DNA from: an uncultured Clostridia bacterium
GTDB taxonomy: Bacteria; Bacillota; Clostridia; TANB77; CAG-508
DNA length: 64,000 nt
Direction of reading: 5' to 3'
Assembly: GCA_944388605.1 (NCBI GenBank)
Contig: CALXJJ010000003.1
Location: 3,091 to 67,090, forward strand
In this document: positions 6,704-54,683 of the stretch, piece by piece
How positions within the stretch are numbered: the stretch's first letter is position 1
Layout: every line of letters begins with the position of its first letter
Program-made: the position numbers and the translations under genes
Notes under the pieces: model-generated
Told to the model about the DNA's origin: nothing
Databases searched by the model: none
The model's input: the letters and a program-made list of their open reading frames with translations, nothing else

Positions 6704-6922
6704 TTATTTTGCTCTCCAAGTAATTCTTCCACGTGTCAAATCATATGGTGAAAGCTCTACTTTTACTTTGTCTCCAGGTAATATTTTTATATAATTCATT
6801 CTTAATTTACCTGAAATATGAGCTAGTATTTGATGTCCATTTTCAAGTTCTACTTTAAAATTAGTATTTGGTAAAGCTTCTACTACTGTACCTTCTACTT
6901 CTATAACATCTTCTTTTGCCAT
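6704..6922 (-). CDS. infA: Translation initiation factor IF-1
   Basis: [53 protein letters not shown]. Confidence 0.97.
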
Positions 6923-6979
6923 AATTTCCTCCTAATACCGTTAGATAAACAATATCTTTTATATTATACTATAGTTTTT

Positions 6980-7747
6980 TTACAATGTCAATATTTCAGG
7001 TTCTTTTTCTGTAATTAATATAGTATTTTCATAATGTGCAGCTAAACTTCCATCTTCAGTAATTATTGTCCATCCATCTTCTAATTCCAATATGTCTGGT
7101 TTGCCTTCTATAACCATTGGTTCAATTGCGAGTGTCATACCTGGTTCCAATTTAATTCCTCTACCAGGTTTGCCATAATTAGGTATTCCTGGATCTTCAT
7201 GCATACTTTGACCAATTCCATGTCCTTGAAATTCTCTTACCACACTATATCCATTTTTTCCTACAAATTCACCTATTGCATGTGAAATATCTCCTATTCT
7301 ATTTCCTACTTTAGCATATTTTATCCCTTCAAAAAAGGCTTGTTTTGTTATTTCTACTAATCTTGTAGCACTTTTACTTGCATTCCCTACAATATATGTT
7401 CTAGCTGCATCTCCATTATATCCATTCTTATATACAACTAAATCTATACTTACTAAATCTCCATCTTTTACTTTAACTTTATCAGATGGTATTCCATGTA
7501 TTACTTCATCATTTATAGAAACACATATTGTTGCTGGGAAATTTGGTACTCCTTTTATTCCACTTGGATAACCTTTTTGCGCTGGAATACCACCGTTTTT
7601 TCTTATAAAGTTTTCAGCTATTTTGTCTAATTCCAAAGTTGTAATTCCAGGTTTTATAGCTTTTTCAATTTCTTTATGAACTGCATTTGTTAATTTACAT
7701 GCCTCTTTCATAAGTTCAATTTCTCTTCTCGACTTTATCGTAACCAC
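6980..7747 (-). CDS. map: Type I methionine aminopeptidase
   Basis: 255 aa with a MetAP fold and motifs GDLVSIDL, FQGHGIG and TLAIEPM. Apparent GTG start. Canonical position between adk and infA. Confidence 0.93.
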   Translation of the reverse strand: MVTIKSRREIELMKEACKLTNAVHKEIEKAIKPGITTLELDKIAENFIRKNGGIPAQKGYPSGIKGVPNFPATICVSINDEVIHGIPSDKVKVKDGDLVSIDLVVYKNGYNGDAARTYIVGNASKSATRLVEITKQAFFEGIKYAKVGNRIGDISHAIGEFVGKNGYSVVREFQGHGIGQSMHEDPGIPNYGKPGRGIKLEPGMTLAIEPMVIEGKPDILELEDGWTIITEDGSLAAHYENTILITEKEPEILTL

Positions 7748-18953: not shown

Positions 18954-19026
18954 TTTTTCCTCCTAACTATTGGCTGATAAGGTTAAATTTACATGTCTAT
19001 GTACTATCAGCTTAGTTTTAAAAAAA

Positions 19027-19350
19027 CTATAATTTTATTTCTATATCAACACCTGCTGGCAAATCAATTTTCATTAAACTGTCAACTGTTTTTTGTGTTG
19101 GGTATAAGATATCTATAACTCTTTTATGTGTTCTCATTTCAAATTGCTCTCTTGAGTCTTTATCTTTATGTGGAGAACGTAAAATTGTTACTATCTCTTT
19201 TTCTGTTGGTAATGGAATAGGACCTGAAACTTTTGCTCCTGTCTTTTTAGCAGTATCTACTATCATTTCAGCAGACTGTTCTAAAACTCCATGGTCATAA
19301 GCTTTTAATCTTATTCTAATCTTCTCACTTTCTACTTTGTTTGTTTGCAT
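19027..19350 (-). CDS. rpsJ: 30S ribosomal protein S10
   Basis: [40 protein letters not shown]...[11 protein letters not shown]. Confidence 0.97.
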
Positions 19351-19566
19351 TTTGCATTTCCCTCCTTCTATATTTATGGTCGGAAGCTATAAACGCACCC
19401 TGGTGTTTCTTTTTTTACCAATATAAAATCCAAAGTCTGCATGATAACTTTGGGATAAGTGCTTTTTTTATTAAACTTACCGCCTGGTCTAAGCCATAAC
19501 ATACTCCATAGGAGTTCCCTCCAACCTCAGTTGTAGCCACATCCTACTTCATCGCTTTTTTCATGC
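19351..19566 (-). promoter_or_regulatory. About 215-nt G+C-enriched structured 5' leader of the S10 operon
   Basis: It lies between the predicted TSS (about 19566) and the rpsJ ATG. It contains the hairpin ATCCCAAAGU...ACUUUGGAU (19428-19456) followed by UUUAUAU, alternative GGAG-GGAA-CUCC and CUCC-UAU-GGAG hairpins (about 19503-19528), and a second copy of the SD-like octamer GGAGGGAA (19515-19522, versus the real SD at 19358-19365). Confidence 0.55.
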
Positions 19567-19572
19567 TTTTAT

Positions 19573-19601
19573 ATTATACAATGCTTTTAGACTTATGTCA
19601 A
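19573..19601 (-). promoter_or_regulatory. Sigma-A type promoter of the S10 operon
   Basis: On the minus strand: TTGACA (19601-19596), a 17-nt spacer, then TATAAT (19578-19573). Both hexamers match the consensus exactly. Confidence 0.7.
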
Positions 19602-19819
19602 TACAAAAAATAAGAAATTTTCATATTTATATTTACTATCACTGGTTTAATCTATTATATTTTATTTATTATAAAAATAAAATTTATCTCATCTACAAGT
19701 TTTGACATTTTTTTCAAATAGTACATGCTATAATTAAAAAAATAGTTCCATTATACTAACAAATCAATTAACAAATATGAAATAAAATTTATTCTTCATA
19801 CAAAATAGGAGTGATACAT

Positions 19820-19966
19820 ATGAGGATAGAATTATTAATTTTAAAAAACAGAGCAAAACTTGAGCATATGATAAAAATAGGAGCTCCCTATGAAAAAATA
19901 TTAAAACAAAGTCAACTGTTAGATAAATACATAAATGAAAAAATGAAAAGGTTAACTTCAAAATAG
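19820..19966 (+). CDS. Spo0E-like sporulation regulatory protein (aspartyl-phosphate phosphatase family), 48 aa
   Basis: Absent from the ORF track (<60 aa). AGGAG sits 8 nt upstream of the ATG. Sequence: MRIELLILKNRAKLEHMIKIGAPYEKILKQSQLLDKYINEKMKRLTSK. The ...SQxLDxxI... helix pair is the Spo0E-family pattern, and a terminator hairpin overlaps the stop. Confidence 0.65.
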   Translation: MRIELLILKNRAKLEHMIKIGAPYEKILKQSQLLDKYINEKMKRLTSK

Positions 19967-19977
19967 TTAGCCTTTTC
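19950..19977 (+). terminator. Intrinsic terminator of the Spo0E-like gene
   Basis: GGTTAACT (19950-57) pairs with AGTTAGCC (19965-72) and is followed by TTTTCT. Confidence 0.5.
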
Positions 19978-20057
19978 TAATATATAACATCTATTGAGCA
20001 TAAATTTACTAAACTGATAAATATAAAAGTATAAATTTTAATGCTTTCCCATTTGCT

Positions 20058-21650
20058 CTATTTAATTCTTTCAAATATTGGTTCTATATTTTCAATATCT
20101 TTACATTTTTTTACTTGTATATATTCCCAGCAACATTCTTCTATTTCTAAGAATCTCCTAACTTTTTTAGATGACTCAGGCATAAAAGGTTCATATAAAT
20201 TAGATAAATTAGCAATAAGGTTACAACATGTATATATAGTATTATTAAATTCTTGTATATTCTCTTTTTGCTGTTTCCATGGCTGTTTTTCCTCATAAAA
20301 TTTATTTCCTTCTTCAACTAAATCTCTAATTAATAAAACTGCCTTTTTAAATTCCAAATTTTCAATTGCATTTCCCACATCTTTATATGCTTTTTCTATT
20401 AATTCCTTCATATATTTATTCATAACACCATCAGGTATTTGTTTTAATCCTTTATATTTTAAAGTTCTATTTATGAGATTTCCATATTTATTAACAACTT
20501 CCGCATTACTTATAGCAACAAATTCTTCAATAGAAAAATTACTATCCTTCCTTTCTGGTCCATTTCCTATTAGATAATATCTAATCATATCAGAATTATA
20601 ATTATCTAGCATCTGTCTTATTGTTATACCATTTCCTTTGGATTTAGATATTTTCTCTGAATTTATATTTAAGTATTGTGTTGCGACCATATAATCTGGC
20701 AATTTATAATCTTCTTCCAACGCTAATAATAAAGCTGGTAATATTATAGTATGAAAGGTTATATTGTCTTTTCCATGTGCCATAAAAATCAAATTATTTC
20801 TGTCATTTTTCCAATAATTTTCCCAGTTTAAACCTTTTTCAATACAAATTTTTTGACATGCTGTAATATATCCTAAAACAGCCTCTATCCATACATACAT
20901 TTTTTTGTCTTCAAATCCTTTAATAGGTATATCGATTCCCCATTCAAGATTTCTGGTTACTGCTTTTTCTGGCAAACCTTCTCTTAAATACTTTTCAGTT
21001 TCATTTTGAGAACTAATTCTCCAATTTTTTTTATTTTTTTCAACATATTTTTCAATCTTATTTTGTAATTTTCCCAATGCTAAATATAAATTCATATTTT
21101 CTTTTTGAACTGTTTCACTTCCACATGTCTGACATTTAGCCCCAATTAAGTCTTCTAACTTAGGCTCATATCCACAATCACACATATCTCCTTTAGTTTC
21201 TTTTCCACAAGAAGGACAAGTTAAAATCAGCTCTCTGTCTGCCACAAACTTATTGCAATGTTCGCAAAAAGGTTGTAAATCTTTTTTAGCATAAATATAT
21301 CCATTATCATACATCTTTTTAAACAACTCTTGTACTTTCTTTTTATGAAATTCATCTTCTGTTTTAGTATATAAATCATATGAAAACTGCATGTCATTAA
21401 AGCAATCTGTAAATTCTTTGTGATATGATTCTGATATTTCTTTAGGAGTTTTGTTTTCTTTTTTTGCTCTAATTGTAATAGGAGTACCATGGCAATCCGT
21501 TCCAGAAACATAAAGTACATTATCTCCAATTTGTCTATAATATCTTGCAAGAACATCTCCAGAAATTAATCCTGCTACATGTCCAACATGTAAAGAATTA
21601 TTAGCATAAGGCCATGCTCCTCCTATTAATATATTTCTTTTATTATGCAT
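20058..21650 (-). CDS. metG: Methionine--tRNA ligase (short form, no C-terminal tRNA-binding domain)
   Basis: HIGH-type motif ANNSLHVGHVAG, zinc knuckles CEHCNKF...CPSCG...CDCG...CQTCG, and KMSKS-type KISKSKGNG. Confidence 0.93.
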   Translation of the reverse strand: MHNKRNILIGGAWPYANNSLHVGHVAGLISGDVLARYYRQIGDNVLYVSGTDCHGTPITIRAKKENKTPKEISESYHKEFTDCFNDMQFSYDLYTKTEDEFHKKKVQELFKKMYDNGYIYAKKDLQPFCEHCNKFVADRELILTCPSCGKETKGDMCDCGYEPKLEDLIGAKCQTCGSETVQKENMNLYLALGKLQNKIEKYVEKNKKNWRISSQNETEKYLREGLPEKAVTRNLEWGIDIPIKGFEDKKMYVWIEAVLGYITACQKICIEKGLNWENYWKNDRNNLIFMAHGKDNITFHTIILPALLLALEEDYKLPDYMVATQYLNINSEKISKSKGNGITIRQMLDNYNSDMIRYYLIGNGPERKDSNFSIEEFVAISNAEVVNKYGNLINRTLKYKGLKQIPDGVMNKYMKELIEKAYKDVGNAIENLEFKKAVLLIRDLVEEGNKFYEEKQPWKQQKENIQEFNNTIYTCCNLIANLSNLYEPFMPESSKKVRRFLEIEECCWEYIQVKKCKDIENIEPIFERIK

Positions 21651-23540: not shown

Positions 23541-23615
23541 AGGGGTATGATGTTAATGGTAGCATACTGGTCTCCAAAACCAAGTGTGAGGGTTCGAATC
23601 CTTCTACCCCTGCCA
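23541..23615 (+). tRNA. trnW: tRNA-Trp (anticodon CCA), with encoded CCA end
   Basis: Acceptor AGGGGTA/TACCCCT, anticodon loop CTCCAAA, T arm GAGGG-TTCGAAT-CCTTC, discriminator G plus CCA. There is one C-A mismatch at the top of the anticodon stem. Confidence 0.9.
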
Positions 23616-54467: not shown

Positions 54468-54683
54468 AAAAAAATACCCCACGTTTAAGCCGTAAGATGA
54501 ATGAAATTTTAAGGACCTGCTTGCACAGGTGGGTGTCTTGTTGAATGCTTATGGGCTTCTTACTACTAAATAGTGTAAGCTTGCACGCCACATTCAAAGT
54601 CGGACTCCCTTTTAATATTTGTTGGTTCTAAAATTCCAGTCTACACGCACTTCGTAGGGAAATTAATAACTTATTTAATTGTT
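54468..54683 (-). ncRNA. Candidate stand-alone structured sRNA of about 200 nt (rod-shaped, 6S-like architecture)
   Basis: A G+C-rich island at 54477-54659 whose ends and successive inner segments pair. The minus strand has a promoter-like TTGAAA-17-TGTTAATAT (54718-54690) and a U7 tract directly 3' of the closing stem. The family is not confirmed. Confidence 0.4.

Follow-up and report, generated by a model that had tools for sequence, protein, structure and literature searches.

The rpsJ locus and its leader

The DNA analyzed here, which we call the window, is a stretch of 64,000 nucleotides (nt) from an uncultured Clostridia bacterium (contig CALXJJ010000003.1). It includes an S10 ribosomal protein operon, in which rpsJ is followed by rplC, rplD, rplW and rplB, and our subject is the RNA leader in front of rpsJ. 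This leader is a real structured element and not a new kind of one: its category is that of a ribosomal protein operon leader of a described family, and it is a sub-threshold member of that candidate family, Rfam RF03136. Genes, leader and promoter at the rpsJ locus are all read on the minus strand. The features that frame the leader are:

19596-19601, (-), -35 hexamer TTGACA, with its position kept in 25 of 27 relatives
19573-19578, (-), -10 hexamer TATAAT, after a 17-nt spacer from the -35 hexamer
19561-19566, (-), predicted 5′ end GCAUGA, whose complement UCAUGC (19439-19444) belongs to the P5 hairpin loop, described below
19358-19365, (-), Shine-Dalgarno sequence (SD) GGAGGGAA, identical to the rpsJ SD in Bacilli
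19027-19350, (-), rpsJ, ribosomal protein S10 (PF00338, 8.6e-40), with its ATG at 19350

The 707-nt gap between rpsJ and metG holds the perfect TTGACA-17-TATAAT at 19601-19573 that the initial annotation of this DNA had pointed out. It is the sole site of its region to match at 12 of 12 positions and one of two perfect sites in the 64 kb, and TTGAC(A/T)-17/18-TATAAT stands at the equivalent place in 25 of 27 related species, in which the distance from the end of the -10 hexamer to a conserved GCG(A/U)UGA is 14-22 nt. Reading from the position of the promoter, we predict a transcription start site near 19566 and thus a leader of 216 nt up to the rpsJ ATG, in agreement with the roughly 215 nt proposed before. 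The leader also stands out by composition, as had been claimed, with 38.9% G+C versus 20.2% in the upstream spacer and 27.2% in the whole window, and only 0.9% of all 216-nt segments match its G+C content. In many bacteria, tuf stands upstream of rpsJ. Here the upstream gene is metG (methionyl-tRNA synthetase, PF09334, 8.9e-127; 20058-21650, minus strand), 707 nt away, and therefore the S10 operon has its own promoter.

Covariance model, blastn, nhmmer and regular expression all find a single copy of the leader in the window, so that a dispersed repeat can be discarded. A second copy of the octamer GGAGGGAA lies inside the leader, at 19522-19515 on the minus strand.

A divergent member of the S10 leader family

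Searching the whole window against Rfam at curated thresholds returns a 6S RNA and a tRNA only, and no match at the rpsJ leader. A permissive search of positions 19000-20100 (1.1 kb), with E-values up to 10, does report one that is meaningful:

19477-19560, (-), S10-Clostridia leader core, covering RF03136 model positions 1-81 (full length), 26.4 bits, E-value 0.005

No other family of ribosomal protein leaders matched that region at E-values up to 10, which agrees with the earlier statement that this leader is unrelated to the L4-controlled leader of E. coli. The suggestion that it might be undescribed does not hold, as Yao et al. 2007 (PMC1913097), who made the first prediction, listed an S10 leader among the putative Firmicutes ribosomal protein leaders, and Eckert & Weinberg 2020 (PMC7247131), whose motif is Rfam RF03136, added the leaders of Clostridia. 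In the literature, the S10-leader family is a candidate autoregulatory leader with its ligand undetermined (Table S1 footnote f: no member), and our literature search found no experimental test of an S10 leader in Firmicutes.

As comparative data we used 80 rpsJ loci taken from one-genome-per-species contigs (the L-numbers below refer to these loci). The closest ones belong to uncultured gut Clostridia, including Candidatus Merdicola and Scatovivens. The entire leader is common to the window and 24 loci (nhmmer E-values 1e-12 to 3e-40), and more weakly to L037 and L057. Not one of the 20 closest loci reaches the Rfam threshold, and in the permissive search a full-length RF03136 match sits directly upstream of rpsJ in 12 of 14 close relatives, at 20.8-31 bits. 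Canonical Clostridia score 43.1 (L033), 41.5 (L045), 39.2 (L034), 38.2 (L041) and 35.8 bits (L057), L074 scores 37.8 bits, and among the Bacilli we find 45.4 (L078), 36.8 (L075) and 36.2 bits (L048); the remaining Bacilli and the Negativicutes lie at 23.7-35.0 bits. Intermediate species connect these groups with the window. Between L057, which is above the Rfam threshold, and the window leader, nhmmer aligns 175 nt with E-value 2.7e-7, and the window therefore sits inside a Bacillota-wide continuum; L033 is linked to the window leader at E-value 3.8e-4.

The family features can also be compared one by one. As in the rest of the family, the element is part of the rpsJ 5′ untranslated region (UTR), immediately ahead of the gene and on its sense strand. 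It shares the 5′ segment GCGAUGAAG (model positions 6-14), a helix P1 around an internal loop and a variable P2, the segment GGAG(U/C/A)AUGU (here GGAGUAUGU, at about model positions 51-60), and a second hairpin ending in GGCG (19482-19500). It differs in the internal loop, which is UGUGGCUAC / GGAGGGAAC where the family has (G)GUUGC / GGUAAC, and in hairpin 2, which is UGG-CUUAGA-CCA instead of CCG-AUUCAAGAAAC-CGG. Across the clade, which counts at least 24 species, the scores of 21-31 bits stay below the cutoff of 35.1. The string UGUGGC was not found in the published motif alignment, and therefore the variant of this clade is not represented there. By sequence comparison, then, the window leader is very probably a divergent member of the Bacillota S10 ribosomal protein leader family RF03136.

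The comparison set holds other deviating leaders. Those of the G+C-rich Bacillota L029-L031, L044 and L072 keep GAUGAAG, P1, GGUUGCC, P2 and GGGUAAU, and carry CGCAGACCAG... in place of GGAG.AUGU and hairpin 2. Their RF03136 score is low or none (22.7 bits for L031), and they may be a further sub-threshold variant.

Covariation in the core

Covariation was evaluated in two alignments. A1 is a MAFFT alignment of 26 species, to which we applied RNAalifold and then explicit pair counting. A3 is the alignment from a covariance model (R1) of the rest of the leader, and it leans towards that model; R1 has exactly one match in the window and 27 among the rpsJ loci. The first ~90 nt of the leader fold into the RF03136 core, with P1 around an internal loop and P2, followed by GGAGUAUGU and hairpin 2:

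19547-19555, (-), GCGAUGAAG, the most conserved single-stranded segment of the family (Rfam alignment, published seed, invariant columns of A1)
19542-19547, (-), P1 5′ strand GUAGGA, 4 of 6 pairs with double changes, in 8-12 sequences each
19534-19541, (-), 5′ side of the internal loop, UGUGGCUA, the clade version of the family (G)GUUGC, invariant in the clade
19522-19533, (-), P2 hairpin CAAC-UGAG-GUUG (19533-19530 with 19525-19522), of variable length in relatives; pairs 45/66 and 46/65 have 10-11 double changes
19514-19521, (-), 3′ side of the internal loop, GAGGGAAC, family GG(U/G)AAC; together with G19522 it is the internal GGAGGGAA
19508-19513, (-), P1 3′ strand UCCUAU, paired with 19547-19542
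19499-19507, (-), GGAGUAUGU, family-conserved, preceding hairpin 2
19482-19500, (-), hairpin 2, GUU.UGG ... CCA.GGC, 96-98% paired, with AU for GC in L037, L043 and L057

The signal in these helices is well above that of the controls. In A1, the paired fraction of the core (P1, P2 and hairpin 2) is 98.4%, with double changes at 8 pairs, in 67 cells; shuffles have 18.7 +/- 4.9 such cells, and 0 of 500 reach 67. For P1 and P2 together the paired fraction is 99.2%, with double changes at 8 pairs (0 of 500 shuffles as good), and four consecutive pairs of P1 are compensated in the 8-12 sequences each given above. Sliding the partner columns of the core by 1-3 positions drops the pairing to 37-46%. 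The 3′ helices of the leader are 86.4% paired in A3, and again 0 of 500 shuffles are as good. Thus the view that a promoter-proximal, conserved and structured leader precedes the S10 operon is borne out by the relatives, with conserved and covarying helices in 26-28 species.

We also looked at mimicry of ribosomal RNA, against E. coli 23S only. Both the number of shared 9-mers, 4 for ~2.3 expected, and the longest match, of 9, are typical of shuffles, so this idea was rejected. GCGAUGAAG (19547-19555) equals positions 46-54 of E. coli 23S (L081, rrlB), and UGGCUUAGA, in the loop of hairpin 2 (19487-19495), equals positions 1061-1069, in the L11-binding hairpin. ACACACGG, at 23S position 943, was discarded as the 5′ strand of a different helix.

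A conserved terminator-like element

The published 81-nt RF03136 model ends before four further elements of this leader: helix P4, hairpin P5, a module that we call ACACC-NGG, and a helix that closes the 3′ domain. The first two, which take up the ~60 nt after the core, and the U-rich tract that follows them are:

19454-19481, (-), P4, GGUAAGU (19475-19481) with ACUUAUC (19454-19460), 88% paired, stacked directly on P5
19430-19453, (-), P5 hairpin CCAAAGUU-loop-GACUUUGG, 93% paired, 4 of 6 pairs with double changes, -8.1 kcal/mol
19420-19429, (-), U-rich tract AUUUUAUAUU, immediately 3′ of P5

In P4, a U-A pair becomes C-G in 3 species and A-U in 1 (A3). The P5 stem of the window has 8 pairs, 3 of them G-C. 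The initial annotation had placed this hairpin at 19428-19456, followed by UUUAUAU, and had read it as an attenuator; it is indeed present, as AUCCCAAAGU (19456-19447) with ACUUUGGAU (19436-19428) and one bulged C, it is conserved and covarying, and it looks like a terminator. A U run of at least 4 follows it in 23 of 28 species of the clade, and a 1.6-kb scan finds 1 terminator-like site against 0.4 expected. The distant long-form leaders of L029, L034, L037, L040, L043, L045, L054 and L076 have at the same relative place a hairpin that is stronger than P5 and is likewise joined to a U run of at least 4. The hairpin with its U run is a conserved, terminator-like element. By analogy, the weakness of P5 may be of the kind seen in factor-stimulated terminators.

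A pairing of the 5′ end GCAUGA with UCAUGC in the P5 loop (-8.8 kcal/mol) was tried and rejected as not significant (1100 of 5000 permutations). It is kept in ~13 species, a subclade, and has no support in the 14 species that differ.

The module and the closing helix

The leader has two more elements in front of the SD:

19392-19409, (-), ACACC-NGG module GAAACACCAGGGUGCGUU, nearly invariant in the clade
19378-19388, (-), distal strand AGCUUCCGACC, which can pair with GG(U)AAGUU (19474-19481) and so close the 3′ domain

GAAACACCAGGGUGCGUU occurs once in the window, where 0.17 occurrences are expected. Two pairings of the module may exist. One is a helix P6, UGGU (19417-19420) with ACCA (19401-19404), which is only 62% paired in A3. 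The other is long-range, GGGUGC (19395-19400) with GCACUU (19457-19462); it is 91.6% paired and has single compensations in L013, L016, L020 and L022, at a level that is not above shuffles (28 of 500). A local ACAC/G(C/U)GU hairpin was rejected for the clade: in two registers it is 67-71% paired and has no covariation, and 25-26 of 28 species have a mismatch at its middle or closing pair, although it does form in distant members.

Outside the clade, the module changes place. Other Clostridia have related ACAC(AC)C-NGG...GUGU elements 50-145 nt downstream of the core, and module strings are frequent in the flanks of the published alignment (69 + 94), lying upstream of the core in some members. 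In the Bacilli L062, L063, L064, L067, L075 and L078 the same decamer is the distal half of P2, GACACACC(C/A)GGC. From these sequences, the ACACC-NGG module seems to have accompanied the core for a long time, at a place that depends on the lineage.

The closing helix would join the strand just 3′ of hairpin 2 to one that lies 10-30 nt ahead of the SD. Its strands are GG(U)AAGUU and AGCUUCC in the window (-10.9 kcal/mol), and elsewhere CGACAAG/CUUGUUG, CGACAGG/CUUGUCG, GACCAU/AUGGUC or CGACCUGAUC/GAUCAAGUUG. For 19 representatives, the mean energy with their own partners is -11.7 kcal/mol versus -9.45 +/- 0.55 kcal/mol with permuted partners (1 of 5000). Bacilli and Negativicutes with short-form leaders have their SD right after hairpin 2, a proximity of core and SD that the closing helix would restore in the long forms.

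Two things only may be new here, the closing helix and the fact that the module varies in position. One reading of them, which we offer tentatively and regard as rather doubtful, is that the Bacillota S10 leader is an RNA of two parts, only one of them covered by the 81-nt Rfam model, and that the ACAC(AC)C-NGG module is as old as the core, with a connectivity that was permuted in evolution. The module would be the distal half of P2 in Bacilli, lie 5′ of the core in some Clostridia, and lie 60-145 nt 3′ of it in the window and many Clostridia. In this last arrangement, the long-range closing helix would loop out the intervening sequence, often with a terminator in it, and return module and SD to the side of the core. 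If the two-part reading were true, the protein-binding site would be composite, and the long forms would combine attenuation with translational repression, as a convergent analogue of the L4 control of E. coli.

The region before the SD varies among relatives. L005, L008, L009 and L020 have an extra AU-rich hairpin (e.g., GAUAGCAAAUAUGCUAUC) 20-40 nt before the SD, and L009 and L011 have still larger inserts between the distal strand and the SD; therefore, the spacing from leader to SD is not fixed.

Proposed regulation by the leader

We think that this leader is best explained as a divergent S10 leader through which a ribosomal protein exerts feedback control on its operon, and we consider that explanation probable. 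An autoregulatory function is, likewise, what we would expect for it, and attenuation may be the main route, a point on which we lean slightly towards doubt. The conserved promoter would start the transcript ~10 nt before GCGAUGAAG. When ribosome assembly lags, a free ribosomal protein of the operon, with L4 and S10 itself as candidates, would bind the core and favor premature termination at P5 and its U run, at ~19421-19429. The control would not run through an antiterminator switch; instead, by analogy with the S10 attenuator of E. coli, the bound protein, perhaps together with NusA, would turn a weak terminator into an efficient one. In transcripts that are read through, the closing helix could set the bound core beside the SD, as a second, translational layer of repression.

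Several observations weigh against this explanation. At 26.4 bits, the leader scores below the curated gathering score of 35.1. The covariation is drawn from 26-28 species, and the shuffle controls do not correct for their relatedness. The folding energy of the single sequence is no better than that of dinucleotide shuffles (z -0.66 and -0.77), and therefore the case for the structure rests on the comparison with relatives. As to attenuation, P5 is weak, with a clade median of -7.1 kcal/mol, and is followed by a short U run, which L004, L012 and L057 lack. By inspection of the alignments, there is no conserved antiterminator, and no upstream complement of the P5 5′ arm is kept. The short-form leaders of L035, L061 and L074 have no P5-like hairpin, and therefore attenuation cannot be the universal mechanism of the family. 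Finally, protein binding and regulation are inferred for RF03136 as a whole, no member of which has been experimentally tested in the literature.

Alternative explanations

The feedback could be absent altogether. The leader would then be a conserved structural 5′ UTR that stabilizes or processes the abundant mRNA of the S10 operon, as a 5′ stabilizer, an RNase site or a folding insulator, and P5 would be just a structural hairpin. That no ligand is named for RF03136 in the literature fits such a role, as do the weak U run, absent in three relatives, and the missing antiterminator; and the conserved GCAUGA, if it pairs with the P5 loop, would shield the 5′ end. What makes a purely structural role unlikely is the arrangement of the invariant single-stranded GCGAUGAAG, UGUGGCUAC, GGAGGGAAC and GGAGUAUGU framed by covarying helices, which is the signature of a specific binding site, and the fact that the core is kept across Bacillota, always ahead of rpsJ. 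Moreover, most characterized leaders of ribosomal protein operons are autoregulatory (reviewed in PMC10931766).

The model of the initial annotation was a different one, a switch between two small hairpins, GGAG-GGAA-CUCC and CUCC-UAU-GGAG (19522-19504), with GGAGGGAA as an SD mimic and a long-range helix GGUUGGAGG x CUUCCGACC that couples the leader to translation. Every one of these pairings exists in the window. The long-range helix has 9 base pairs (2 of them G-U), and it appears, together with the CUCC-UAU-GGAG hairpin, in the minimum free energy structure of the full-length leader. Both small hairpins can be paired in 97-98% of the cells, and the option stays open in relatives as GGAG never changes and the bases opposite it, among them P1 positions 78 and 79, are always C or U. 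Yet neither hairpin has covariation above shuffles (219 of 500 and 331 of 500), and both occupy the 3′ strand of P1, which covaries with another partner. The long-range helix has no support from covariation either and clashes with P2: its 5′ strand is P2, which varies freely, while its distal strand is constant, being CUUGCC or CUUUCC in ~20 of 26 relatives, and the CUUGCC of most relatives is unable to pair with GGAGG. The two copies of GGAGGGAA are both there, and the repeat is probably a coincidence because the SD copy is also the rpsJ SD of Bacilli, whose leaders have no internal octamer, and because the internal copy overlaps the conserved GG(G/U)AAC loop of the family. The structural model proposed with this switch, including GAGGUUGGAG x GCUUCCGACC, gives way to P1, P2, hairpin 2, P4 and P5, which are the helices that covariation supports. 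The idea of a ribosomal protein leader with an attenuator was right in kind, its helices were mostly wrong, and we find the switch itself quite improbable.

A third possibility is that the terminated leader of ~140 nt (19566 to ~19425) is the actual product and works in trans, as a small RNA titrating some factor, such as a ribosomal protein. The strong promoter and the conserved hairpin with its U run would produce such an RNA, and abundant short leader transcripts are common for attenuators. The module and the closing helix, beyond the terminator, are also conserved, which favors a function in the full-length mRNA, and there is no copy away from rpsJ; a role in trans is highly improbable. 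Hardly credible, lastly, is a metabolite or alarmone riboswitch, or attenuation by an upstream open reading frame (ORF) or leader peptide, for although the leader is long, conserved and structured with a terminator-like hairpin and has overlapping ORFs of 41-42 codons, no Rfam riboswitch family matches at E-values up to 10, the ORFs have no Pfam match and are disrupted in relatives, where loops differ in length by numbers not divisible by three, the first AUG stands 1 nt after GGAG, and the only well-spaced AUG reads AUG-GCU-UAG.

Comparison with other leaders

In B. subtilis, the infC-rpmI-rplT (L20) and rplJ (L10) leaders act by transcription attenuation, and they have defined antiterminator/terminator alternatives. 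What our divergent S10 leader shares with them, in a low-G+C Gram-positive setting, is a promoter-proximal structure predicted to bind protein and then a terminator-like element. These are other RNA families with other ligands, and no antiterminator was found in the window leader.

In the E. coli S10 leader, L4 and NusA make a poor terminator efficient, and control is dual, of transcription and of translation (PMC10931766). That leader, which is described as confined to Gammaproteobacteria, belongs to the same operon and is also long and structured, with a hairpin and a U run. We see no homology to its helices HA-HE, including the L4-responsive HD/HE (Rfam, E-values up to 10). Its dual logic is the best functional analogy for the weak terminator without antiterminator of the window, where any regulation would be of a predicted kind.

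A 2024 survey reports an rpsJ motif (RLC-47-1), a candidate ribosomal protein leader in the rpsJ 5′ UTR of Peptostreptococcaceae (PMC11109978). Its location is the same as that of the window leader, and the comparison is one of location only, as given in the survey outside its structure figure. The Peptostreptococcaceae locus of our set, L074, has the RF03136 core at 37.8 bits and a ACACACCCGG module.

What the clade adds

In at least 24 species of AT-rich uncultured gut Clostridia, the S10 leader falls below the curated Rfam threshold and is missed, and adding sequences of this clade to the RF03136 seed would cure a systematic false negative. Almost 20 years after its prediction, the ligand and the mechanism of the Firmicutes S10 leader are not established in the literature. 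P4/P5, the ACACC-NGG module and the closing helix define the RNA to use in binding and termination assays, for which the 81-nt core may not contain the whole binding site.

Other features of the window

Transcribed divergently from the rpsJ promoter, a 51-codon ORF at 19811-19966 (plus strand) resembles Spo0E-like sporulation regulators (PF09388, 20.3 bits, just below the cutoff of 23). The window S10 protein has no N-terminal extension; those of L012, L018, L022 and L037 have an apparent one, rich in Lys, Thr and Ala, of ~35-45 residues.

The other perfect TTGACA-17-TATAAT of the window lies at 6963-6991 on the minus strand and overlaps the end of a methionine-aminopeptidase-like ORF (6980-7747), ~34 nt ahead of the start of an infA-like ORF at 6922, both ORFs being named from their translations alone. 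It has GTATAATATAAAAG in common with the rpsJ promoter, and it is likely to be an internal promoter of the ribosomal protein cluster, with a short, unstructured leader.

The two RNAs found at curated thresholds are a 6S RNA (RF00013) at 54472-54663 on the minus strand, with 104.1 bits over the full model length, and a tRNA gene (RF00005) at 23541-23612 on the plus strand, opposite to the ribosomal protein cluster, with 54 bits.

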